A DNA stretch of 64,000 nt from an uncultured Muribaculaceae bacterium. GTDB lineage: Bacteria > Bacillota_I > Bacilli_A > RF39 > UBA660. Under the pieces are notes generated by a model that worked only from the letters and a program-made list of their open reading frames with translations, was not told the origin of the DNA and did no database searches. The stretch is taken from NCBI GenBank assembly GCA_964473455.1, contig CAYYQX010000002.1, positions 45,086-109,085 on the forward strand, in the 5' to 3' direction. The position numbers and the translations under genes are program-made. Below, piece by piece: positions 17,428-52,640 of this stretch (positions within the stretch are counted from its first letter, which is position 1; every line of letters starts with the position of its first letter).

Positions 17428-19434
17428 ATGATGTGTTATACTAAAAATGTGATGAATATGAAAAGGTATCTCAATAAATTAAATGTGATTTCATTAATTA
17501 TTGCCATATATCTTGTTGTTGGAACAGCAACATTTTTTAGTGACAGCAGTATAAGTAGTATTTTATTTTTAATTGCTTTAATTATTCCTTTATTTTTTTT
17601 AGTTAGATTATTATTAAAATACTTATTAAAAAAAGAAATAAAATTAGAGAAGAACCCTAAAATAAATAAAAAAGAAATATTTATTTATTTTTTAGTAATC
17701 TTCTTTTCTTTTTTAATATACTATTTAGCTTTTTATCCTGGTGGCACATCACCTGATGTTTTAAATCAATGGAAACAAGTAATTACAAACTCATATAATG
17801 ATTGGCACCCCTTTATTCATACGTTGCTTTTTTTTAAACTTCCTTCCTTAATCACTCAAAATATTACTGTTACAGTCTTATTTCAAATAGTTTTTATATC
17901 AATCATTTTAACATTTACCTTATATTTGTTGAGAAAATTAGGTTTTAGCAAAAAAATAATGTTTATATTTATTATTCTATTTATGTTAAACCCAGAAAAT
18001 GGGCGAATGGCAACTATGCCTTGGAAAGATATACCATATTCTTACATGATTTTAACTTTAACCGTTATGTTGATGCACATAGTAAAAACAAATGGAGCTT
18101 GGTTAAAGGAGAATAAAAATCTAATAATGTTAGCTATCTTTTCTTTCTTAATGATCATGTTTAGACATAATGGTATATTGTGTTTCATTCCTTTATTTTT
18201 AAGTATAATTTTATTTTACAAAGAAAAAAGGAAATTAGTGTCTGTTATCTTTATTGGAATATTAGTATTTAAATTCATTTTAACAGGCCCAATATACGGC
18301 TTAATTGGAGTAGGAAACCATTCAGCAACATTTTCTGAATCAATGGGTATTCCGAATAATCAAATAGCTTACATAGTAGTAAACAACGGTTATATAACAG
18401 AAGAACAAATGAAAACTTTTAATAAATTTGGTGATGTTGATAGTTGGAAAACATATTTTCACCCAACTAGTTTCAATGATATAAAATACTACGCCATCTA
18501 TAACAGAAAATTTGCTGAAGAAAACAAAACGGAATATTTAAAATTTTATTTGGCATTAGTAAAGCAAAATACAGGCATGGCTATAAAGTCTTATATATAT
18601 GTTACAAGTCCGATATGGAGTTTAAAATATATTTCTCAAGGCACATATAAAGAAAGTTTTTTACTTGATAATTCGTTGCCTAGCAAGATATCAAAAGCTT
18701 TAAATGATAATATTAACAACTACGAAACTTGGCTTCAAAAACTAGGAATAGCTAATATCTTCTTTAGCTATGGTGCAAGTTTATTTATAATAATGTTCTC
18801 TCTATTACTAATTACTTTAAAATCTAAATTTTATTTAAAAAAACATTTACCATATATACTAGTAATATTTAATACAATAGCTATCTCTCTATTAATAACG
18901 GGCGGGGAGTTAAGATTTGTTTACTGCAACATATTATGTGTAATTCCAATAATTTTATACGGCTTAACTAATATTACTAAAACAAACGAAAACAGCGATA
19001 ATAAGACACTTTTATACACATTATTTGTTCAAAAAACAAAGAATTCTTGGTTACAATTATTTAGATATTTGTTCGTTGGCGGGATCGCAGCTGTTGTAAA
19101 TATTGGTTCTTTATATATATTTACGTCATGGTTAAATATCTACTATATAATATCAAATATCTTAGGCTTTATATTAGGCTTAATTGTAAATTATTTATTA
19201 AGCAAAGCATTCATTTTTACTGATTGTAAGGTAAATAAGAAAAAAGAATTTTTTGATTATACAGTTATTGGCATTATAGGAGTTTGTATAGATACACTAC
19301 TAATGTTTGTCTTTACGTCATGGATTGGGTTATTTTATTTAATCAGTAAAATAATTTCAACACTGTTAACCTTTATTTGGAACTTTGTTGCGAGAAAATT
19401 TATGTATAAAATATATGAAAGAAGGATAAAATGA
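17428..19434 (+). CDS. large polytopic membrane protein (GT-C-like) fused to a C-terminal GtrA-family domain
   Basis: 668 aa. The last roughly 125 aa ([22 protein letters not shown]....[12 protein letters not shown]) form a 4-TM GtrA-like module. The N-terminal roughly 540 aa have more than 10 TM helices with motifs FYPGGTSPD and NDWHP. The true start may be the internal ATG near 17455. Confidence 0.5.
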
Positions 19435-20969
19435 AAAAAGTAGTAATAATTGGGGCAGGCCCAGCTGGGTTAGCGGCAGCTTATAAACTTTTAAAAGAAG
19501 GTAAAAACAAATTTAGTGTAACAATTTTAGAAGAAACTAACGATATTGGTGGAATCTCTAAAACCGTTGAATATAAAGGCAATAGGATAGATATTGGAGG
19601 ACACCGCTTTTTTACAAAGTCAAAAGAAGTAAATGACTTTTGGAGTGAAATTTTACCCAAACAAGGCTTTCCAGCCTATGATGATAAAATATTAAATAAT
19701 AATAAAGAGTTTTTAGGTAAAAAAGATCCTGAAAAAGAAGATAATGTAATGCTTCTTAGAAATAGAGTATCTAGAATATATTACTTAAAAAAGTTTTTTG
19801 ATTATCCAATTGCGCTAAAGTTACAAACATTTAAAAACATGGGTATTAAAAATACAATTATATCTGGATTTAGTTATATTAAGTCTATGGCCATTAAAAA
19901 AGAAGAGACAAACTTGGAAAACTTTTTTACAAATCGTTTTGGTAAAAAGTTATATAGTATGTTTTTTGAAAAATATACTGAAAAGCTTTGGGGTAGACAC
20001 CCGAGAGAAATTGATGCTTCTTGGGGAGCTCAAAGAGCTAAAGGATTGTCTATTAAAGAAGTATTAAAAAATGCTTTTGGTAAAATATTAAAGAAAAAAA
20101 ATTCAACAGTTGAAACATCTTTAATTGAGCAATTTGAATATCCAAAGTATGGACCAGGACAATTATATGAAGAAGCTGCGAAGAAAATTGAGGCAATGGG
20201 TGGTGTTATTTTAAAAACACACAAAGTAATAAAAATAAATAACAAAGATAATAAAATTGTGTCTTTGGAATGTGAGAATAAAGTTACTATAACTGGAGAT
20301 ATCTTTTTAAGTTCAATGCCTATTAAAGATTTAGTTAATAATATGAATAATGTATCAAAAAACATTATTAGGATTGCTGATAAATTGCCATATAGAGATT
20401 TTATTACTGTTGGCTTATTACTTAAAAAAATAAATCTTAAAAATGAAACAAACATTAAAACACTAAATAATATTATTCCAGATAACTGGGTATATGTTCA
20501 AGATCCTAGTGTTAGAATGTGTCGTTTCCAAGTCTTTAATAATTGGTCGCCTTATTTAGTAAAAGATATTACAAAATACGTTTGGATTGGGTTAGAGTAT
20601 GTTTGTAGTGAGACTGATGATCTTTGGACTAAGACAGATGTAGAGTTTAAAAGTTTTGCAATAGATGAAATGATTAGTATGAACATTATTGATAAAAAAG
20701 ATGTTGTTGACTCACATGTTATTAAAGTAAAAAAAGCCTATCCGGCTTACTTTGATACATATAATGAATTAGATAAAGTGATAAAATATCTAAATGCTTT
20801 TGACAATTTATATTGTATTGGTAGAAACGGTCAACACCGCTATAACAATATGGATCATTCTATTTTAACTGGTTTTGTTGCCGTAGACAATATTTTGAAA
20901 AACAAGAAAGATAAAGCTAATCTTTGGCAAGTAAATGCTGAACAAGAATATCATGAGGCTAAGAAATAA
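19431..20969 (+). CDS. FAD/NAD(P)-binding flavoenzyme, UDP-galactopyranose-mutase-like (possible pyranose-furanose mutase)
   Basis: 512 aa. N-terminal [17 protein letters not shown] dinucleotide-binding motif. C-terminal [13 protein letters not shown] resembles the UGM C-terminal GRxGxYxYxxMD motif. The size is closer to eukaryote-type UGMs than to bacterial ones. Overlaps the upstream gene by 4 nt. Confidence 0.4.
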
Positions 20970-21000
20970 TCTTAGTTTTTTTGTTTATATAAAGTTTAAT

Positions 21001-21840
21001 TTATTTATTTTTTTTCAAAGTAAAACAATCACCCAAATATGGAATATCAGGGATAGATTCATATTTATTATTAACCAACATTTCAAAAAATATTTTTATA
21101 TCATTTAAAACTTTAATTTGCTCCGCTTTTTCAGCATATAATTTATTTGAAACAAAATAAATTTCCATTTCAAATATCTTATACCAAAAGCTTAATAAAA
21201 AGGCCAAACGGTCTGTATTCGTATTAATATATTTTGGGGAGTAGTCTAAACACATATTATAGAAAAAATTGCTTAGCAATGTAGAAATACTCGAAAAATT
21301 AAAACCACCAATAGAACAACAATCCACATCAACAAAATAATGATTCGAACACGCATCAATTATAATATTATCAAAACTAAAATCACCAAGAATGATTTGA
21401 TTATTGTGAATTTGTTTTAATGTTTCAGAAATATTTTTAATTATTTCTAAATACATTTCGAATGGTAGTTTTGTGTCATTTATATCAAACAAAGGGTTTG
21501 CTCCTCGTATATAAGGCATAACACAACCAACTAATATAGAATTTTTATCAATTATTTTGTGTGTTGGGATAACAACATTTGCTAGTCCGTTTTTTAAAAA
21601 TAATAGTTCAAGTTTTTGCTCTCTATTAAAGCAACCAATATCATTATATAATTTATACAAAAAGTCTCCACACACAAATAAAGCACTTTCTGAATAAGAA
21701 ACATTAGTTAAAAGTGTCAATTCTTTAAAATTAATATCTTCTAATCTTAAAACTTTCATATTTTCCCCGCTTTTATAGTGCTTATTATAAGCAAATTGTA
21801 TTAAGCTGTCAATAAAGAGTTTTTTTGAGCTAAAAAACAA
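21001..21840 (-). CDS. protein-kinase-like fold protein (choline/ethanolamine kinase or APH family, LicA-like?)
   Basis: 279 aa. Brenner-type catalytic loop ILGDFSFDNIII, with G replacing the usual H, and a downstream FVDVDCCSIGG that resembles the DxD/DFE metal-binding motif. Confidence 0.35.
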   Translation of the reverse strand: MFFSSKKLFIDSLIQFAYNKHYKSGENMKVLRLEDINFKELTLLTNVSYSESALFVCGDFLYKLYNDIGCFNREQKLELLFLKNGLANVVIPTHKIIDKNSILVGCVMPYIRGANPLFDINDTKLPFEMYLEIIKNISETLKQIHNNQIILGDFSFDNIIIDACSNHYFVDVDCCSIGGFNFSSISTLLSNFFYNMCLDYSPKYINTNTDRLAFLLSFWYKIFEMEIYFVSNKLYAEKAEQIKVLNDIKIFFEMLVNNKYESIPDIPYLGDCFTLKKNK

Positions 21841-21873
21841 ACTTTATAGTATAATACTACTAGGAAGTGACTT

Positions 21874-22929
21874 ATGAAAGTAATACCAATTATTCCATCT
21901 TTAAACCCAGATAATAAACTAATTCTTTATATAGAAGAACTAATAAAGATTGGTTTTAAAAAAATAATTATTGTCAATGATGGTAGTTCAAAAAGATATG
22001 ACAAATATTTTGAAGAGTTGAAAAGCCATAAAGAATGTATAGTACTAACACATATTAAAAACCAAGGCAAAGGAAGAGCTTTAAAAACAGCCTTTAACTA
22101 TTACTTAGAAAACTATAGTAATTACTTTGGGGTTGTGACAGCTGATGCGGATGGTCAACACAGTCCAAAAGACACTTTAAATACGGCAAAAGAACTAATT
22201 AAAAACAAAACTTCACTAATTTTAGGTGTTAGAAACTTTAATTTAAAAAATGTCCCTTTAAGGAGTAAAGTAGGGAATAAAATAACTAAAATTGTCTTTT
22301 CTATTTTTAACGGCAAAATTATTAGTGATACTCAAACTGGTCTTAGAGGAATACCAAATGATTTAATAAAAGAATATCTTAATTTAGATGGAGAGCGCTT
22401 TGAATACGAAATGAATATGCTTATTCATTCTATTATAAATAAAAAGACTATTGTTGAAGTTCCAATAGAAACAATATATATTAGAAAAAATAGGAGCTCA
22501 CACTTTAGTATCCTTTTAGATTCAATAAAAATATATAAAATGATTATAAGAGAGTTTTTTAGATTTTCTTATACTAGCTTTATGGCTTTTTTAGTAGATA
22601 TTTTATTGTTCTTTATTTCCATAAAACTTATTTTTAGTGGTCTAAATATCTCTTTAGCAATTATTCTTTCAACCATTTTAGCTAGAGTAGCATCTTCATA
22701 TGTCAATTATATTTTAACTAAAAAAGTAGTGTTTAACTGTAGTAAAAAACACAAAGAATTATTGGTAAAATATTACGGGCTTACTGTTGTTCAAACATTT
22801 ACCTCAGCTCTACTTGTAATAATAGTAACTAATATCTTTATTGACGAAACTATCAGTAAAATAGTAGTGGATTCCTTACTTTTTATAATAAGCTACAATA
22901 TTCAGAAAAAATGGATATTTAAAAAATAA
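21874..22929 (+). CDS. GT2 glycosyltransferase (DPM1/GtrB-like) fused to a C-terminal GtrA-like 4-TM domain
   Basis: 351 aa. N-terminal IIPSLNPDNK...IIIVNDGSSK and DADGQH motifs of GT-A polyprenyl-P sugar transferases. C-terminal roughly 120 aa are hydrophobic and GtrA-like (FFRFSYTSFMAFLVDILLF...). Confidence 0.7.
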   Translation: MKVIPIIPSLNPDNKLILYIEELIKIGFKKIIIVNDGSSKRYDKYFEELKSHKECIVLTHIKNQGKGRALKTAFNYYLENYSNYFGVVTADADGQHSPKDTLNTAKELIKNKTSLILGVRNFNLKNVPLRSKVGNKITKIVFSIFNGKIISDTQTGLRGIPNDLIKEYLNLDGERFEYEMNMLIHSIINKKTIVEVPIETIYIRKNRSSHFSILLDSIKIYKMIIREFFRFSYTSFMAFLVDILLFFISIKLIFSGLNISLAIILSTILARVASSYVNYILTKKVVFNCSKKHKELLVKYYGLTVVQTFTSALLVIIVTNIFIDETISKIVVDSLLFIISYNIQKKWIFKK

Positions 22930-22947
22930 TATTTAGGGGGAATTAAT

Positions 22948-23739
22948 TTGAAAGATGAACAAAATTTTATAAGACAAATTGTTAAAAATAAAAATCCTAA
23001 GTTTATTTATGGCTATAACGGAGAAGTAAGAGCTAAGTTTTTAAAAAGATTGGCGTCTTCTTTTCCAGTAATTACTGATGCAAAAAACAAAATAGGAATT
23101 GGTGTTTATATTGAAGGAAGAAGTCTTCCTATAACAAATCAAAACCTAAATCCTATAGTAAATACTTTTTATAGTCAAACGTATCTTAATTTATTAATTA
23201 TTTATAATATTTTAAATACACTTATAGAACAAATAGATAGTAAAAATTTGGAAAGTCGTTCGAAAAGCTTTCTAAAAGAAATTAATACAAAAATCAATTT
23301 ACCTCTGCACATAAATAGTTTAAATAAATTAAGAGATACCTTTAAAAAAGACTTAGATAATGTTTATGAAAAATACTGTGACTATTTAACTAAAGGTGAG
23401 TCTGCCCTTGATGAGGTTCCTTGTTTAATACCAACAGAATATTCGTTACTAGAAATCTATTTAAGCTTGTTATTAAAAATGTTAAATACTAATGCTTATT
23501 TTATTCTAATATTTGATCAACAAGAAAAGTTTTCAGACGAAACTAAAAAGGAAATTATAAATCTTACAACGTCTGAAATTATCGAATACATTTCAATAAA
23601 TATTGCTTGTGAGCCAAATGAGTGGCAAACATTTGAAGAAGACTTAAAATATAACGAGGCAATAAGTTCTTTTACGACTATTGAAATAGATGATTGCTTT
23701 AAAGATACAAAAGGAAAAGCAAAAACTCTGAATATATAA
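22948..23739 (+). CDS. hypothetical protein, paralog A of a tandem pair (degenerate AAA+/DnaC-like motifs?)
   Basis: 263 aa. Shares with the next ORF the blocks KFIYGYNGE.RA.FLK, IG.YIEG..LP, Y.NLLII.NILN..IEQ, YF.IIFDQQ and ACEPNEW.T.E. Followed by a hairpin terminator at 23740-23766. Confidence 0.5.
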   Translation: MKDEQNFIRQIVKNKNPKFIYGYNGEVRAKFLKRLASSFPVITDAKNKIGIGVYIEGRSLPITNQNLNPIVNTFYSQTYLNLLIIYNILNTLIEQIDSKNLESRSKSFLKEINTKINLPLHINSLNKLRDTFKKDLDNVYEKYCDYLTKGESALDEVPCLIPTEYSLLEIYLSLLLKMLNTNAYFILIFDQQEKFSDETKKEIINLTTSEIIEYISINIACEPNEWQTFEEDLKYNEAISSFTTIEIDDCFKDTKGKAKTLNI

Positions 23740-23766
23740 GTTCACTAAATACTAGTGAACTTTTTA
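23740..23766 (+). terminator. rho-independent terminator hairpin gttcactaaatactagtgaac followed by a T-run
   Basis: Perfect 8-bp inverted repeat immediately after the TAA stop at 23737-23739, followed by TTTTTATT. Confidence 0.6.
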
Positions 23767-23812
23767 TTAATAATTATATGTGATTTTTTTCAAATGTGAT
23801 AAAATAATATGA

Positions 23813-24625
23813 ATGACACGTAAGTTGGGGGAATTTATGGAAAGCAATCAATATTTGTATGAAAGAATAATTGGAAGAAGTAGTCATAAATTCATTTATG
23901 GCTATAACGGGGAAGAAAGAGCAAGTTTTTTAAAAAAGGCTGCCCTTGCTTATTCAATTAATGGTGAATCCAATACACCAATTGGCATTTATATTGAAGG
24001 TGAACAATTGCCTGTACCAAATAAAAGCCTTGAAAGGGAAGCTGTTGTGACTTTCTCACATCAATGCTATATCAACTTGTTAATAATTTTAAATATTTTA
24101 AATGCGATTATCGAACAAGGTGACAGACAAATTTCTAAAGACCGTTTAAAAAAGTTTTTTAATAATCTTCAAAAAGTATTTGGTTTATCTAAAGACATAA
24201 ATAATTTAAGTGCCTTAAGAGCTAGCTTAAAAAGTGAACTAGATGCTTGTTATAATAAATATGTTAAATATATAAATACAGGCAATTTACAAGAATATCT
24301 TGCCCAACCAACAACTAAATATGTAATACTAGATATATACTTAAGACATTTTAAAATTCTTTTAAATACTGATTCATACTTTGCTATAATCTTTGATCAG
24401 CAAACTATGTTTTCTACTTTAACCCAAAAAACAATTAATAGCCTTATTGGTCACAGAAATAATAGTGATATTGCCATTAATGTTGCTTGTGAACCAAATG
24501 AATGGGAAACACTAGAAGGACTGAATAATAATTTTATTAACGCTATGCATGATTTTGATTATGTTAAGTTAGATGCTTGTTATCAAGAAACCGTTAATGG
24601 AGCCAAAAGACGTACATTAAAATAA
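23813..24625 (+). CDS. hypothetical protein, paralog B of the tandem pair
   Basis: 270 aa. Colinear similarity to 22948..23739 across the whole length (see the motifs listed for paralog A). Confidence 0.5.
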   Translation: MTRKLGEFMESNQYLYERIIGRSSHKFIYGYNGEERASFLKKAALAYSINGESNTPIGIYIEGEQLPVPNKSLEREAVVTFSHQCYINLLIILNILNAIIEQGDRQISKDRLKKFFNNLQKVFGLSKDINNLSALRASLKSELDACYNKYVKYINTGNLQEYLAQPTTKYVILDIYLRHFKILLNTDSYFAIIFDQQTMFSTLTQKTINSLIGHRNNSDIAINVACEPNEWETLEGLNNNFINAMHDFDYVKLDACYQETVNGAKRRTLK

Positions 24626-24669
24626 TTTATTAATGTTAATTTAATAAAAATATGTTAAACTATTTGTAG

Positions 24670-25923
24670 GTGACATTTATGATTTTACCAGCAGATACTT
24701 ATATTGTTATTAATAAAACTATCTTGCACAACAGTGACAGACGTCTTTTAACTATGCTTTATCAGCCAATTATTGGCAGTACTTCTATTAGTTTATATTA
24801 TTCATTATGGGCTTATTTAGATAAGCTAGAGCTAATGTCAACTTCTTGGACCTTTCACCACTTAATGGCTAGTACTAAATTAAGTTTAAGTGAAATATTG
24901 AAAGCTAAAGATTTGCTTGAAGGTATAGGTCTAATTAAAACTTATAAAGAAATGGAAAATAATAATTATATTTTTGAAATTTATTCACCAATTTCCGCAT
25001 ATGAATTTTTATCAAATCCAATTCTATCAACCATTCTATACAACAATATTGGCGAACTTGAATACAACCGTACTATAAAATATTTTAAAAGTATTAACGT
25101 TAATATGGAAAAGTATGAAGATATTACAAAAAACTTTAATAATGTATTTGAAAAATTAAACAATGTTAACTATGATATAATATGTGATGAAATAAGGAAG
25201 AGTAGCAAAAGAAACTTAGAAATAGTTTCTAATATTGATTTTGATGGCTTAATGTCTAAATTTCCAGATGAATTATTAAATAAAAAGAAAATAAACAAAG
25301 ACCTAATTAATAATTTAGCGTTTATATATAATTTTAATCAGAATGATTTAGAAAAAATCATTTTAGATTCAATTAATGATAAAAAGATAATTGATGAAGA
25401 ATTACTAAAAGTAAATGCCAGAAAATACTATAAATTTGAAAACAGTGGCAAGTTACCTAATTTAGTATATAAAGAAAACAATATTAAATTAACCGATGAA
25501 TCAAATAAAAGCAAACTAATATATCAATTTGAAACAACAAGCCCTTATAAGTTTTTGTGTAGTAAACAAGGTGGAACTAGGTTAGCAAACCATGATACTG
25601 CAATTTTGGAATACTTAGTTTTAGAACTAAAATTGAACCCTGGAGTAGTTAATGTTTTAATTGATTTTGTATTAAAAATAAACAATAATAAGCTAACTAA
25701 ATCATACGTTGATACAATTGCTTCTCAGTGGAAGAGGAGTAATATTAATACAGCTGAAGAAGCAATAAGTTTTGTTTTAAAAGAAAAGTTTAAGAAAAAA
25801 AATACTAAGCAACAAGTAAAACCAAAATGGTTTGATGAAAAAATAGAAAATAAAGAAATGTCTTTAGAAGAACAAAAAGAATTTGAAAACTTATTAAAGG
25901 AGTTAAAAAATGAAAAAAATTGA
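24670..25923 (+). CDS. replication initiation and membrane attachment protein (Bacillus DnaB-like, DnaD-domain family)
   Basis: 417 aa. C-terminal DDBH2-type motif YVDTIASQW (YxxxIxxxW). Lies directly upstream of dnaI and overlaps it, matching the Bacillus dnaB-dnaI arrangement. Confidence 0.6.
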   Translation: MTFMILPADTYIVINKTILHNSDRRLLTMLYQPIIGSTSISLYYSLWAYLDKLELMSTSWTFHHLMASTKLSLSEILKAKDLLEGIGLIKTYKEMENNNYIFEIYSPISAYEFLSNPILSTILYNNIGELEYNRTIKYFKSINVNMEKYEDITKNFNNVFEKLNNVNYDIICDEIRKSSKRNLEIVSNIDFDGLMSKFPDELLNKKKINKDLINNLAFIYNFNQNDLEKIILDSINDKKIIDEELLKVNARKYYKFENSGKLPNLVYKENNIKLTDESNKSKLIYQFETTSPYKFLCSKQGGTRLANHDTAILEYLVLELKLNPGVVNVLIDFVLKINNNKLTKSYVDTIASQWKRSNINTAEEAISFVLKEKFKKKNTKQQVKPKWFDEKIENKEMSLEEQKEFENLLKELKNEKN

Positions 25924-26824
25924 TGAAGCAATAAATAACTTGGGTTTTTCATTTGATGAAAAGTTACTAGTTGATGAGTATAGGAAAGCTTGTAAAGACC
26001 CTTATTTTAAAGACATGGTTAAAGAACTTAAAATAGAAGAAGAAAAGCTCTTAAAAAGAACTTCTGTTTTACAAGAATGCAGTTTAGAATTAAAAAACTG
26101 TTTAAATTGTAAAAGTATTCTTGAATGTAAAAATAAAATTTTAGGTTATGCCTATACACCAATGGTTTTTAATGATGAACTAATATTTAACTATGTTGCT
26201 TGTAAACATAAAGAAAACCTTGAAAAAGAAGAAGAGTATAAGAAAAACATTTATTTATATGATATTCCAAAAGAAATAAGAGAAGCTTCTTTAACTGATG
26301 TATATTCCGATATTAGTAGAACTCCTATTTTAAAGTGGTTTAATTCATTTATGAAAAACTTTGGCGTTGAACCTAATTTAAAGGGCCTATATTTGAGTGG
26401 TAGCTTTGGTTGTGGGAAAACTTATCTCGTTTCAGCAATGTTTAATGAATTAGCTAAAAAAGGCGTTAAATCAGCCATCATATATTTTCCAGAATTCTTA
26501 AGAGATTTAAAAAGTTCATTTAAAGATGACTTTGATGAAAAATATGATTATATTAAAAAAGTTCCTTTACTTTTACTAGATGATATTGGAGCAGAAAACT
26601 TATCTCCTTGGAGTAGGGATGAGATTCTTGGAACAATTTTACAATATAGAATGCAAGAAAGAAAACCAACATTTTTTACATCTAATTTAAATATGGAGGA
26701 ACTTGAAAACCACTTTCAAATGACAAAAAACTCATCTGACATTGTAAAAGCAAGAAGAATAATTGAAAGAATAAAACAACTAACTGATACTATAGAATAT
26801 ATTGGAAAAAATTTAAGAAAATAA
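25910..26824 (+). CDS. dnaI: primosomal protein DnaI (helicase loader, AAA+)
   Basis: 304 aa. N-terminal Cys cluster (CLNCKSILECKNK), Walker A GSFGCGKTYL and Walker B LLLLDDIGAE. Confidence 0.75.
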   Translation: MKKIDEAINNLGFSFDEKLLVDEYRKACKDPYFKDMVKELKIEEEKLLKRTSVLQECSLELKNCLNCKSILECKNKILGYAYTPMVFNDELIFNYVACKHKENLEKEEEYKKNIYLYDIPKEIREASLTDVYSDISRTPILKWFNSFMKNFGVEPNLKGLYLSGSFGCGKTYLVSAMFNELAKKGVKSAIIYFPEFLRDLKSSFKDDFDEKYDYIKKVPLLLLDDIGAENLSPWSRDEILGTILQYRMQERKPTFFTSNLNMEELENHFQMTKNSSDIVKARRIIERIKQLTDTIEYIGKNLRK

Positions 26825-26835
26825 AAAGATAGAAA

Positions 26836-27015
26836 CTAATTTGATTTTTCTATCTTTTTTAATGTTCTAAGTTCTCTTGAACTAACTCTTATACTATTTC
26901 CGTTTCCATCAGTTATCTTTTGTAAGTTTGGCTTTTGAGCATGCTTTGTTGCTCTACATGAATGGGAACGTTTATTACCAAATAAAGGTTTTTTATCTGT
27001 ACATTTTTTTGCCAC
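26836..27015 (-). CDS. rpmB: 50S ribosomal protein L28
   Basis: Core sequence KKCTDKKPLFGNKRSHSCRATKHAQKPNLQK matches L28. The ORF-track start at 27054 is probably too far upstream. A GTG at 27015 with GGAGG 8 nt upstream gives a 59-aa product starting MAKKC, similar to Bacillus L28. Confidence 0.75.
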   Translation of the reverse strand: MAKKCTDKKPLFGNKRSHSCRATKHAQKPNLQKITDGNGNSIRVSSRELRTLKKIEKSN

Positions 27016-27045
27016 TTTTGTTTCCTCCTTGCCTTGCTTCGTTAA

Positions 27046-27057
27046 CTTTATCACAAT
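27046..27057 (-). promoter_or_regulatory. extended -10 promoter (minus-strand TTGTGATAAAGT) for rpmB
   Basis: Reads TGTGATAAAGT on the minus strand about 30 nt upstream of the rpmB GTG. The same TGTGATAAA-type element recurs upstream of three other minus-strand genes. Confidence 0.4.
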
Positions 27058-27168
27058 ATATATAAATAGTCAATTAACAAACGATAAAATAATGTTTTTT
27101 TTATATTTTTTTAGTAATTATTGCTTACAAAACTTTTGTTTGGTATACTTAATTTAGAAGGTGAAATT

Positions 27169-30045
27169 ATGAATTATATTCCTCTAAATATAAAAACTAA
27201 TTATTATTTACTTCATAGTTTAATAAAAATAGATGATTTAATTGATTTTGCCAAAAAAAATAAGTTAAACGCTCTTACTATAACTGACAATAATATGTAT
27301 GGAGTAGTGGAGTTTTACTATAAATGTATGAAAAATAACATTAAGCCAATAATTGGTTTAGAATTATCTTATCCAAAAGCTATTATATTGTATGCGAAAA
27401 ATTATAACGGGTATAAGAATTTATTGAAAATACAAACTAAAAATAGTGAGAAAAGTATAAACAATGACTTCTTGTCACAACACAACAGTGACTTAATTTG
27501 TATCATTCCTTTTGAAAATAGATCTATTTATAATGAATTAAAGGCTATTTATAGTGAAGTTTATATTGGTTTTAAAGATGAAGTTGAAAAAGAAGAGATT
27601 AAAGTAAAAGATAAACTATATATGGATGAAATTTTGTGTTTGGAAAACATTGATAACAAATACTTAAGATATTTAAAGGCTATCAAAGAGAAAAAAATAA
27701 TAACAGAAATAGAAATAATTCAAAATAAACATTTAAAATTAATAGACATTGATCTTACAAACAATGAAATATTTAATAAATGTAATGTCGTTTTTCCTAC
27801 CTTTGACAAATCTTTACCTAAGTTTTTAGAAAAGGGAAGCTTTGAATATTTAAAGACTTTGTGTAAAGAAGGATTAATAAGAATCTTTGGAAAAAAAGTT
27901 AATAAAATATATATTGATAGACTAAAGTATGAGTTAGATGTCATACATAATATGGGCTTTGAAGACTATTTTTTAATTGTTTTTGATTATGTTAAATTTG
28001 CCAAAGAACAAGGCATTTTAGTAGGTCCTGGAAGAGGGAGTGCGGCAGGGAGTTTGGTTTCATACTTACTTGACATAACAACGGTTGATCCAATTAAGTA
28101 TGATTTGTTGTTTGAAAGATTTTTAAATCCAAGTCGTATTACAATGCCGGATATTGATATTGATTTTGATGCGGATAGAAAAGATGAAGTAATTAATTAT
28201 TGCATTAAAAAATATGGCGCTAAAAAAGTAGCTCCTATCATCACTTTTACAACATTAAAAGCTCGTCAAGTAATAAAAGATGTTGCACGAGCTCTAGGTA
28301 ATGAAACAAAAATTGTAGACATTTTATGTAGTATGTTAGATCGAACTAAAAGTCTTTTAGAAAATTATAAAAGTGAAAAAATCAAAAGCTTTATGAATGT
28401 TAATCCTGAATTAAATGATATATATAAAATTGCGATTAAATTAGAAAATCTAAAAAGACAGACTTCAATTCATGCTTCCAGTATTGTCATAAACGATGTT
28501 GATTTAGAAGAAGTAATTCCACTAGATAAACATGAAGATATTTATTTGACTGGTTATTCTATGGATTATTTGGAAGACTTGGGACTACTTAAGATGGATC
28601 TTTTAAGTATTTCTTTTCTAACACTTATTAGTGATATATTAAAAGACATCAAAAAAACATATAAAAAAGAAATTGACTTTAATGATATTGATTTAAATGA
28701 TCAAAAGGTCTACGATATCTTTAAATCTGGAAACACTATAGGAATATTTCAATTTGAATCTCGAGGAATGATTAACTTTTTAAAGAAATTAAAACCTAAC
28801 TCTTTTGACGATATAGTTGCGGCAATTGCTTTGTTTAGACCTGGTCCAATGAGTAATATTGACGATTATATTAAAAGAAAAAACGGTTTAAAATTTAGCT
28901 ATATGGTTAAAGAATTAGAACCTATTTTAAAGTCGACTTATGGAATAATTATTTACCAAGAACAAATAATGAAAATTGCTAAAGATTTGGCAAACTATTC
29001 ATTAAGTGAAGCTGACTTACTTAGAAAGGCTATGAGTAAGAAAAAAGAAGACATACTAGTAAAAGAAAAAGAAAAGTTTATTGAAGGCTGTGTAGCTAAT
29101 CATATTTCAAATGATAAAGCCCTTGAAATATATAATCTGATTTTTAAGTTTGCTTCATATGGCTTTAATAAATCTCATTCTGTAGCTTATTCTATTATTG
29201 CTTACAGAATGGCGTATTTAAAGCTATATTACCCTGAAATATTTTTAAAGAACTTACTTTCTAAATTTTCTAACAATACTGATAAAATGAAAGATTATAT
29301 TTATGAATGTAAATTGAATAATGTCTTATTTTTAGCCCCAGATATTAATACTAGTACAACTGAATTTGTAACTGAAAATAAAAAATTAAGGTTTCCACTT
29401 TCTAACATAAGAAATATTGGTTATTTAACAGCTAATGAAATAGTTAAAAAAAGAGAGATTCCTTTTAAAGATATTTTTGATTTTGTTAAAAAAACAAATA
29501 AAGTAATTAATAAAAAAGTTATTGAGTCTTTAATCTATGCGGGTTGTTTTGACAGCTTAAATTATAATAGAAAAACATTAATTGAAAACTTAGATATTAT
29601 AATGAACTATAGTGAAATAGGAGATATTTTAGCTAATGAAAGGGATTTTAAGCCTGTTTTAACTATTAAGGAAGAATACAGTGAGAAGGAATTACTACAG
29701 CAAGAATTAGATATTTTTGGCTTTTATCTTACTAATCATCCAATTTCAAAATATAAAGATGATACTTATGATTTAAAAGATTTAAGTGTGTATTTTAATA
29801 AAATTATTAGTCCGGTTTTATATGTTCAAAAAATCAAAGAAATAAATACAAAGAATAATCAAAAAATGATGTTTGTCGTTGGAAGTGACGAGATAAATTT
29901 AATCGACATTGTTGTTTTTCCAGATGTTATTATGAATAAAGTTTTGGAAGTAGGGGATATTGTTAGATTTACGGGTAGAATAGAAAAAAGATTTGATAAA
30001 TTTAGTTTGATTACAACTGATTTTGTAAAAATAACTACTAATTAA
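27169..30045 (+). CDS. dnaE: DNA polymerase III alpha subunit DnaE
   Basis: ORF track starts at 27121. An ATG at 27169 (MNYIPLNIKTNYYLLHS) is preceded by a GAAGGTGA RBS. Carries PHP domain and polymerase core motifs (GPGRGSAAGSLVSYLL, PDIDIDF). Confidence 0.9.
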   Translation: MNYIPLNIKTNYYLLHSLIKIDDLIDFAKKNKLNALTITDNNMYGVVEFYYKCMKNNIKPIIGLELSYPKAIILYAKNYNGYKNLLKIQTKNSEKSINNDFLSQHNSDLICIIPFENRSIYNELKAIYSEVYIGFKDEVEKEEIKVKDKLYMDEILCLENIDNKYLRYLKAIKEKKIITEIEIIQNKHLKLIDIDLTNNEIFNKCNVVFPTFDKSLPKFLEKGSFEYLKTLCKEGLIRIFGKKVNKIYIDRLKYELDVIHNMGFEDYFLIVFDYVKFAKEQGILVGPGRGSAAGSLVSYLLDITTVDPIKYDLLFERFLNPSRITMPDIDIDFDADRKDEVINYCIKKYGAKKVAPIITFTTLKARQVIKDVARALGNETKIVDILCSMLDRTKSLLENYKSEKIKSFMNVNPELNDIYKIAIKLENLKRQTSIHASSIVINDVDLEEVIPLDKHEDIYLTGYSMDYLEDLGLLKMDLLSISFLTLISDILKDIKKTYKKEIDFNDIDLNDQKVYDIFKSGNTIGIFQFESRGMINFLKKLKPNSFDDIVAAIALFRPGPMSNIDDYIKRKNGLKFSYMVKELEPILKSTYGIIIYQEQIMKIAKDLANYSLSEADLLRKAMSKKKEDILVKEKEKFIEGCVANHISNDKALEIYNLIFKFASYGFNKSHSVAYSIIAYRMAYLKLYYPEIFLKNLLSKFSNNTDKMKDYIYECKLNNVLFLAPDINTSTTEFVTENKKLRFPLSNIRNIGYLTANEIVKKREIPFKDIFDFVKKTNKVINKKVIESLIYAGCFDSLNYNRKTLIENLDIIMNYSEIGDILANERDFKPVLTIKEEYSEKELLQQELDIFGFYLTNHPISKYKDDTYDLKDLSVYFNKIISPVLYVQKIKEINTKNNQKMMFVVGSDEINLIDIVVFPDVIMNKVLEVGDIVRFTGRIEKRFDKFSLITTDFVKITTN

Positions 30046-51178: not shown

Positions 51179-51931
51179 TTAGTGTAGTCTGGCTTTATAG
51201 CTTTTTCCTTCCATTTGTGCATCTATAATGCTTGCAAATGTTTTATGTAGTCCTTCCAATTGAACTTCATCCATGTCAATACACATTTCTCTTTCAACAT
51301 AACTTTCTATATCAAAAATCATTTCTTTCAAAAAATTATAATTATAATTTAAAACACAAAAATTTTTTATAAACTTAATAACACAAATAAACAGCAAGCT
51401 TATTTTATTACTATATTTAAATATTTCTGCCTTACTACTTCCTGCATTTATTGTAAGAGCAGTTATCCACATTGCTTCGGTACAATAAGTTATAATATTA
51501 TAAATAAAAGGATTATATTTTTTCATTTTATCAATTTCGTCAAAACCATTTATAATGCAGAAGTTGATTACAGAGATAAGATTTTCTGCAAATAAAACGC
51601 TACCTGTTTCAATTGATTCTTCATCTGCAGAATCAAACATTTTTTCGTAATCAACAGAAAAAAATATGAGTAAATCGTTAAAAGCGCTAGAAAAGTCTTT
51701 TCTTGAAGAATATCCTTGTTTAAAAATATGGCGAGCAAATTCACGAAGTGTTTCAATCAAATTTGCATCAGGATTTAATTTAGAGTCTACGTACTTATAA
51801 AGTAACGTTTTTAAAACTTCTTCACGACAAAACCAATTTATTCTTTTGTCATGCGCAGTTTTATTTAAAATAATCATAATATACTGTTTTGTATAATATT
51901 CGTTAGTTAAATTTTTTCCCATATTTCTCAC
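51179..51931 (-). CDS. hypothetical protein
   Basis: 250 aa, soluble. No motifs recognised. Confidence 0.35.
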   Translation of the reverse strand: MRNMGKNLTNEYYTKQYIMIILNKTAHDKRINWFCREEVLKTLLYKYVDSKLNPDANLIETLREFARHIFKQGYSSRKDFSSAFNDLLIFFSVDYEKMFDSADEESIETGSVLFAENLISVINFCIINGFDEIDKMKKYNPFIYNIITYCTEAMWITALTINAGSSKAEIFKYSNKISLLFICVIKFIKNFCVLNYNYNFLKEMIFDIESYVEREMCIDMDEVQLEGLHKTFASIIDAQMEGKSYKARLH

Positions 51932-51974: not shown

Positions 51975-52550
51975 AAAAACATATGTAAAACATATATTTT
52001 ATTATGTATGGACTTTAATATAGTTAACTTTATGTCTTAGGTCAAGTAGGTTTTCCCTTATTTCTACTAACAATTACTCATTAGCAGTTCCCTTTTAAAG
52101 AAATAAATGCAAAGTCGCCTATTGCATGACTTGATTACCACTTAGTACATACTGTAATCTTATATTATAATGACACTCTAGGAGATTTCCTCAGCAATTT
52201 CGTTTATTATTAATCCTTTTTTGCAAGTATGGTTTCAATTACAGTATTTAAATCAATTTGGCCAAACTAATTTAAATAGAACTAATTATCCCCCATATTC
52301 ACTCAAGGCAAGCTACACTACCCGTAACGTTAGCCACATGGTAGGTTTAATCCCGTTTCATAGTAAACTATGAAATAGGTCTCAACTAAATTCTGGGTCA
52401 TATGTCGTATGCCATTACGGTTGCCCAAAATCTATTTCTTTCAGCACTCACCCAAGACTGGGCGTCTAAAGCAAGCACAAAAAGCTTCATCGGTATGCTC
52501 TTTAACGGTATTTTAACCCCGTCTTCATAACAAACTATTTTGACTAGAAT
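51975..52550 (-). ncRNA. candidate large structured non-coding RNA (~570 nt), identity unknown
   Basis: An ORF-free stretch in all six frames, with clearly higher GC than its flanks. Contains many hairpins, e.g. UUCAUAG-UUUAC-CUAUGAA, CCCAGUCUUGGG and CUACC...UAACGUUA...GGUAG. On the minus strand there is an extended -10-like TGTTATGAA near 52520-52528 followed by GGGG. At the low-coordinate end there is an intrinsic terminator AUAUAUG-UUUUA-CAUAUGU plus U8 (plus strand 51975-52003). tagO appears to have its own terminator at 52565-52604. Confidence 0.3.
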
Positions 52551-52640
52551 AATGTACCATCACATATATTTAGAAAAAAATAGCGATAGGAAAATATTAC
52601 CGTATTTTCCCATCTCTGTTAACATATTAGCACTTTTTAG

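Follow-up and report, generated by a model that had tools for sequence, protein, structure and literature searches.

Two adjacent open reading frames, ORF1 and ORF2, lie on the forward strand of a 64-kb stretch of contig CAYYQX010000002.1 with a G+C content of approximately 26%; this whole stretch is referred to as the window. The pair is located directly 5' of genes encoding a DnaB-like protein and DnaI, as stated in a preliminary description of the window, and both assignments are confirmed by matches to NF053829 and NF006505 (Table 1). The YxxxIxxxW motif ascribed to the DnaB-like protein is visible in its translation as YVDTIASQW. In the product of dnaI, Walker A (GSFGCGKT) and Walker B (LLLLDDIG) are both intact, which identifies a genuine AAA+ helicase loader. 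The preliminary description regarded ORF1 and ORF2 as catalytically inactive, DnaC/DnaI-like AAA+ proteins with a role in replication initiation; the fold, the family and the gene context of the two proteins are analyzed here.

The length of 263 residues originally given for ORF1 is borne out, whereas ORF2 most likely comprises 262 residues rather than 270. Its start is placed at the ATG at 23837, not at the ATG at 23813, because a GGGGGA ribosome-binding site is located 5-6 nt upstream, because this codon aligns with the ORF1 start, and because the 262-residue form (P0001) is the version listed under an NCBI source.

Tandem paralogs

A comparison of the two sequences by BLASTP reveals 41% identity over 261 residues (E 7e-51), in agreement with their description as clear paralogs. 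The shared blocks KFIYGYNGE(V/E)RA.FLK, IG(V/I)YIEG..LP..N, Y(L/I)NLLII.NILN.IEQ and ACEPNEW.T.E are present as reported; the fourth block of that list is in fact YF(I/A)(L/I)IFDQQ, which is one residue shorter. No third copy resembling ORF1 or ORF2 is found elsewhere in the window. In a neighbor-joining tree of 141 family members, the two proteins are sisters with branch lengths of 0.33 (ORF1) and 0.29 (ORF2). Because they are mutual closest relatives as well as tree sisters, the duplication is lineage-specific, and the family gene is single-copy at every other locus collected (26/26).

Predicted fold and degenerate nucleotide site

AlphaFold2 models were built with a 22-sequence alignment and have mean predicted local distance difference test (pLDDT) scores of 87.8 and 86.7, the latter for ORF1, with predicted TM-scores (pTM) of 0.89 and 0.88. 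Both models share one topology. A helix (residues 4-12) precedes strand 1 (17-21), which is followed by a four-residue loop, helix 1 (26-38) and strand 2 (49-52); three long helices and a connecting helix (67-176) then lead to strand 3 (182-187), which ends in a conserved Asp, and to a further helix; strand 4 (212-218), strand 5 (240-244) and one final helix (248-261) complete the chain. The insert after strand 2 thus spans approximately 110 residues (helices 67-98, 101-115 and 124-148, plus 165-176), in place of the short helix-extension-helix (HEH, initiator-specific) insert that the ORC/Cdc6-STAND branch carries at this position and of which it may be a counterpart. A C-terminal helical lid with sensor 2 is absent, and a single helix follows strand 5. 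The structural neighbors of the models are ORC3 (the best match), ORC5, ORC1, Cdc6, TnsC, MuB and RdrA. Each protein is predicted, with high confidence, to consist of one P-loop/AAA+ α/β core of the ORC/Cdc6-STAND type without a lid. Clamp-loader δ/δ' proteins are composed of three domains, and a homology with them was rejected in view of the single domain present here.

In the models, KFIYG-YNGEER forms strand 1, the loop and helix 1, that is, the Walker-A position, and IIFDQQ forms the end of strand 3, that is, the Walker-B position. In both proteins, the Walker-A site (G22-Y-N-G-E-E-R28-A) lacks GxxxxGK[ST]; R28 falls at the position of the Walker-A Lys, counting from G22. The same degeneracy is present in the family consensus, which was taken from two family alignments (A2 and A3) and reads SRHQFIYGxxxxER...SYFxxIxDxxxxI...AINxxIxxRINxDISxKVAxxPxxWxTY...HDYGxVELDD. 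According to column statistics over 132 full-length members, the Walker-A site of the family is H17-x-F-I-Y-G22, a variable stretch and E-R28, with no Gly-Lys-Ser/Thr, and most members have Glu, Lys or Asn instead of the Gly before the Lys position. At the Walker-B site (IIFD187-QQ), the Asp is conserved at 80%, and D187 is followed in the family by Lys, Asn, His or Gln; Glu is outside the three commonest residues at that position. The preliminary description, which had noted the missing GxxGxGK[ST] in the first block and had interpreted IIFDQQ as a Walker B without its Glu, is thus upheld on both sites, and its reading of the pair as pseudo-AAA+ proteins gains support from the confidently predicted AAA+ α/β core.

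In ORC/Cdc6 proteins, an arginine finger is located at the base of strand 5 (feature list, PMC12839542). The corresponding position, assigned here from the DSSP string and not by superposition, is occupied by H238-D239-F/Y240, a near-invariant HDY in the family and SSF in ORF1, and contains no conserved Arg. Other near-invariant positions are P48, K173, N201, R207, N209, S213, W223 and D246. Because AAA+ sheets are parallel, the conserved residues can be assigned to two edges of the sheet: H17, P48, K173, R207/N209/S213 and H238-Y240 are predicted to lie at the N-terminal edge, and G22/R28, D187, W223 and D246 at the C-terminal edge, which is the side of the nucleotide site.

Distribution of the family and its relationship to PF24389

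Single-protein word-indexed searches of 5.8 billion proteins returned only ORF1 and ORF2 themselves. An exhaustive HMMER search with a two-sequence profile yielded 211 clusters at E<=1e-3, 161 of them at E<=1e-10, and the members are almost all 250-270 residues long and aligned end to end. Besides a few fragments, the members that deviate from this pattern are two proteins extended at the C-terminus by unannotated sequence and P0057 (429 residues), in which an N-terminal HD phosphohydrolase domain (PF01966, E 1.8e-6) is fused to the family domain, possibly as an artifact of gene calling. A scan of Joint Genome Institute (JGI) metagenomes with both paralogs recovered just two distant fragments.

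The matches in genomes are metagenome-assembled genomes (MAGs) labeled Bacilli, Mollicutes, Tenericutes, Mycoplasma, Erysipelotrichaceae and Clostridium, together with three small contigs binned as Muribaculaceae. The G+C content of all collected family loci is 23-35%, and the family is, as far as sampled, confined to low-GC (gut) Bacilli. The three small contigs (L007, L009 and L012; 24-28% G+C) carry the family gene and are labeled 'uncultured Muribaculaceae' (Bacteroidota); they are probably mis-binned, because their composition and gene content resemble those of the Bacilli loci.

That the pair had not been recognized as a known family needs qualification. The 262-residue form of ORF2 matches Pfam PF24389 ('ORC-CDC6-like') with 57.3 bits (E 1.6e-15; gathering threshold 27), residues 49-251 being aligned with profile positions 74-287 of 571, and 25 of 99 relatives also pass the threshold, always at approximately positions 71-294. 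On the other hand, PF24389 is itself uncharacterized, as far as could be found, and neither ORF2 nor its relatives (250-270 residues) cover the whole 571-position model. At this profile level of comparison, the match spans the helical insert and strands 3-5 of ORF2 and of about a quarter of the relatives, whereas the first 70 or so profile positions, where a P-loop would be expected, are unaligned with the ORF2 family, and the last 280 or so have no counterpart, as the chains stop after strand 5. Three quarters of the relatives remain below the threshold, as does ORF1, which has no match in Pfam at all. The 270-residue form of ORF2, merely eight residues longer, has no Pfam match in hmmscan even at E<=1, a result that was reproduced and is probably an effect of the HMMER filters. 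An annotation pipeline that takes the longer start would overlook the membership in PF24389. NCBIfam gave no credible match for ORF1 or ORF2, PDB sequence searches with single proteins and with the profile gave no meaningful match, and no description of this family was found in the literature.

Comparison with known systems

The proposed relationship with DnaC/DnaI is not supported. An hhalign comparison of the window DnaI with the family profile gives a probability of 0.13%, and the helicase-loader models (PF01695, NF006505 and NF005931) have no match to ORF1 or ORF2 even at E<=1 to 10; IstB, DnaC and DnaA models likewise gave none. The window DnaI has intact Walker motifs and an NF006505 match; the family has no profile similarity to it, its structural neighbors are ORC/Cdc6 proteins, TnsC, MuB and RdrA, and it lacks the N-terminal helicase-binding domain of the loaders.

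The nearest described analogs of the family are ORC3/ORC2 and the 'inactive STAND' protein BrxB of the bacteriophage exclusion (BREX) system. BrxB and the C-terminus of PglW are lid-less, Walker-less ORC/Cdc6-STAND domains that serve as non-enzymatic components (PMC12839542). The likeness to these domains, which lies in an AAA+ core that lacks a lid and has degenerate Walker A and B motifs, is one of kind only and not of membership: the family has no match to PADLOC or Pfam BrxB (DUF1788) models, the BREX genes brxC, pglX and pglZ are not among the annotated neighbors of its loci, its helical insert after strand 2 is much larger, and it occurs in chromosomal housekeeping contexts. For ORC3 and ORC2, which are AAA+-like but non-catalytic subunits of the origin recognition complex of eukaryotes, the sequence identity is just 6-10%. 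ORC3 differs further by its lid, its insertion domain and its winged-helix domain and acts within a hetero-hexamer on DNA, whereas DNA binding by ORF1/ORF2, or a role of theirs in replication, is only putative.

Unequal conservation of the two copies

A family hidden Markov model (HMM) built without ORF1 and ORF2 scores ORF2 at 243 bits and ORF1 at 172 bits. Nearly every family-invariant residue is present in ORF2, which is presumably the functional orthologue. ORF1 has lost 8 of the approximately 19 most conserved family positions and has the consensus residue at 10/19; the substitutions are H17 to Pro, P48 to Gly, K173 to Leu, N201 to Ile, R207 to Glu, N209 to Ile, H238 to Ser and D239 to Ser, while Y21, G22, R28, D187, W223 and D246 are retained. 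According to the models, the losses would fall mainly on residues of the N-terminal edge, and the residues on the P-loop side would be kept. A partner able to accept an interface but unable to provide one would be expected to show such a pattern, as would a copy on which selection has relaxed.

Gene neighborhood and putative transcription units

The 34 loci collected consist of 26 distinct loci other than that of the window itself, duplicates of these, and L023, which comes from another assembly of the same organism. The neighborhoods were checked over approximately 6 kb by tblastn with the window DnaB, DnaI, DnaE, L28-like and upstream proteins. Neither dnaB nor dnaI is present near the family gene at any of the 26 other loci, including those of the closest relatives at 34-38% identity (L007, L026 and L001), and the remaining query proteins are not encoded near it either. 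The one exception is L025, where rpmB-dnaE is located 5 kb downstream of the family gene, with no dnaB or dnaI. The divergent arrangement of rpmB(-) and dnaE(+) is conserved between the window and L025 (7045-8107), with the family gene upstream in both; in L025, dnaB-dnaI is absent from the interval between them. The commonest context, observed at seven loci, is truA-rplM-rpsI followed by the family gene, often with Abi_2 and an HtrA-like protease downstream. Other contexts include a HisRS-like gene, prfB, acetate kinases, a WYL regulator and a resolvase/methyltransferase island.

Within the window, ORF1 and ORF2 are separated by a terminator-like hairpin and a U-run (-11.5 kcal/mol, z -4.55 versus shuffles), the sole terminator-like site in 21700-27200. 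A candidate extended -10-like element, recognized by reading the sequence, follows the hairpin (Table 1). A sigma-70 promoter scan gave 48 sites versus 36 expected and is uninformative in DNA of 26% G+C. The gap between ORF2 and dnaB (44-53 nt) is unstructured, with no hairpin or terminator; dnaB probably starts at ATG 24679, behind an AGGTGA ribosome-binding site, as the alternative GTG at 24670 overlaps that site. Upstream, the stop codon of a GT2-GtrA glycosyltransferase gene is located 18 nt before the ORF1 start. The hairpin suggests that the paralogs belong to different transcription units, likely GT2-ORF1 and ORF2-dnaB-dnaI: ORF1 would then be the last gene of the glycosyltransferase unit, and transcription of ORF2 may continue into dnaB-dnaI in this genome.

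Proposed function and alternative explanations

The explanation that we favor, with moderate confidence, is that ORF1 and ORF2 arose by lineage-specific tandem duplication within a family of approximately 260-residue, motif-less ORC/Cdc6-like AAA+ cores, which act as non-catalytic scaffolds, with ORF1 as a one-sided partner of ORF2. Proteins of this family would not hydrolyze nucleoside triphosphates (NTPs) and would serve as scaffolds or adaptors in the manner of ORC3, ORC2 and BrxB. Assembly would probably occur through the usual AAA+ protomer-protomer faces in a nucleotide-free manner. Because the residues on the P-loop side are kept and the polar residues of the N-terminal edge are lost, ORF1 would most likely be a one-sided partner or cap for ORF2.

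Several points weigh against this explanation. A Foldseek search against the PDB found nothing at E<=1e-3, and TM-scores of 0.3-0.4 indicate that the structural likeness is remote. The placement of conserved residues on the two sheet edges is derived from the DSSP string and the parallel topology rather than from measured distances, and oligomerization and an ORF1-ORF2 heterodimer are putative. Among the loci, no conserved partner gene that would point to a scaffolded target was found. Additionally, R28 and D187 are conserved at the former nucleotide site and may allow some non-canonical ligand to bind.

The preliminary description placed the pair in replication initiation on the basis of gene position, and a corresponding alternative is that ORF1 and ORF2 are accessory or regulatory pseudo-ATPases that act with DnaB/DnaI, for example as ORC3-like non-catalytic helicase-loading subunits. 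The location immediately 5' of dnaB-dnaI on the same strand, the lack of a terminator in the ORF2-dnaB gap, a fold from the initiator/loader branch of AAA+ with ORC3 as its best structural match, and a homologue (L025) that, like the pair in the window, lies upstream of rpmB-dnaE, at a distance of 5 kb, are consistent with this alternative. However, the synteny test that the description itself suggested gave the opposite result: a conserved linkage to replication genes is absent (dnaB and dnaI at 0/26 loci, closest relatives included, and dnaE at one, 5 kb away). The family also shows no sequence-profile similarity to DnaI, and the hairpin parts ORF1, which is coupled to the glycosyltransferase gene, from ORF2. 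Among the loci collected, only this genome has the family next to dnaB-dnaI, and the data do not support a role in replication for the family as a whole. The functional link of the pair to its neighbors dnaB and dnaI is putative, and a role specific to this genome may arise from co-transcription of ORF2 with them; we consider this alternative unlikely.

It is likewise improbable that the family is an accessory of defense or mobile islands, a BrxB-like inactive STAND protein with variable effectors, whose location in the window is incidental. BrxB is a precedent for such a domain, and the neighbors do vary: L001 has a resolvase, two methyltransferases and NTP_transf_6; Abi_2 is one gene downstream in L032 and L011/L012 and farther downstream in L013 and L022; a WYL-HTH regulator is found in L016-18, Fic and NERD-HRDC in L027, HamA in L032 and a UvrD-like helicase in L008. 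Against this stand the lack of PADLOC matches (0/7 members tested) and of any meaningful PHROGs match, the negative tblastn searches of 72,556 plasmids and 50,697 phages, and the absence of the family from IMG/VR viral contigs. Additionally, the proteins carry no effector domain, BREX genes are not among the neighbors, and the gene is a single-copy gene beside same-strand housekeeping genes (rplM-rpsI, prfB, HisRS-like).

A third alternative, which appears quite improbable, is that the family regulates or senses nucleotide or phosphoester metabolism and that its degenerate pocket, with R28 and D187, binds a nucleotide-derived ligand without hydrolysis. NUDIX genes occur within two genes downstream of the family gene in 4/14 MAG loci (L010, L011, L016 and L022), DHH phosphoesterases in L011 and L033, a calcineurin-like phosphoesterase in L008 and NTP_transf_6 in L001, and the HD domain of P0057 points in the same direction. 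However, the NUDIX genes of three of these four loci are orthologs (cluster C13) and the fourth is of another type, so they may reflect inherited synteny and not an independent association; these neighboring families are common and heterogeneous, and no such gene adjoins the pair in the window. The replacement of the phosphate-accommodating P-loop glycine by Glu, Lys or Asn in the majority of members also argues against a nucleotide-derived ligand, and the recurrence of phosphoesterase and NUDIX genes is a lead only.

A more specific proposal is very unlikely, namely that ORF2, probably co-transcribed with dnaB-dnaI, has been recruited in this lineage to the DnaB/DnaI helicase-loading machinery as an ORC3-like non-catalytic AAA+ subunit with ORF1 as an asymmetric partner. 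The AAA+ interface of the family would be nucleotide-free, and a conserved Arg at the Walker-A Lys position would pair with a conserved His-Asp located where the neighbor would have its arginine finger. Finally, we regard it as highly improbable that ORF1 is a decaying duplicate without a function of its own and that only ORF2 matters, because the losses at conserved positions, the family-HMM score 70 bits below that of ORF2 and the missing Pfam match are opposed by an intact reading frame of 263 codons with a strong ribosome-binding site, the same predicted fold at a pLDDT of 86.7, exact retention of the strand-1/helix-1 block, D187, the ACEPNEW block and D246, and a branch barely longer than that of ORF2.

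Other features of the window

The region upstream of ORF1 is a cell-envelope glycosylation cluster that encodes a 668-residue membrane protein with a C-terminal GtrA domain, an amine-oxidase-like flavoprotein and the GT2-GtrA fusion glycosyltransferase. A 279-residue ORF on the opposite strand has weak protein-kinase/RIO-like matches (E ~0.01) that are below threshold. An ASCH-APH kinase-like gene lies beside the family gene in L017 and L018, and homology between it and the 279-residue ORF was not detected. Farther along the window, a full-length OLE (ornate large extremophilic) RNA matches Rfam RF01071 with 380 bits over model positions 1-616, and a 250-residue ORF follows it directly downstream on the same strand.

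Table 1. Positions of the features discussed, numbered from the first nucleotide of the window.
Feature	Position	Strand	Remarks
Cell-envelope glycosylation cluster	17428-22929		Upstream of ORF1
279-aa ORF	21001-21840	-	Weak protein-kinase/RIO-like matches
ORF1	22948..23739	+	263 aa; TTG start; ribosome-binding site AGGGGGA; divergent paralog
Terminator-like hairpin and U-run	23738..23762	+	Between ORF1 and ORF2
Candidate extended -10-like element	~23794-23802		TGaTAAAAT
ORF2	23837..24625	+	262 aa (270 aa from the alternative ATG 23813); conserved paralog; PF24389 member
dnaB (Firmicute-type; helicase loading/DNA remodelling)	24670..25923	+	NF053829 E 2e-67; Pfam DnaB_2 E 5.8e-11
dnaI	25910..26824	+	NF006505 276 bits (cut-off 228), E 3.7e-82; Pfam IstB_IS21
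rpmB-like ORF (small) and divergent dnaE-type polymerase	26836-30045	- (rpmB), + (dnaE)	3' of dnaI
250-aa ORF	51179-51931	-	Directly downstream of the OLE RNA
OLE RNA	51992-52576	-	RF01071

Implications

The adjacency of the pair to dnaB-dnaI in this genome is no evidence of a function in replication, and an attractive inference is thereby corrected. If the favored explanation of ORF1 and ORF2 as non-catalytic scaffolds is true, the family would represent a compact AAA+ core without any catalytic motif or lid that is conserved across poorly studied, small-genome, low-GC gut Bacilli, and it would add a member from a housekeeping context to the few stand-alone inactive ORC/Cdc6-STAND domains, such as BrxB, ORC2 and ORC3. 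The conserved copy and the one-sided degenerate copy would then provide a natural contrast, which could reveal the surface that is used by the family.

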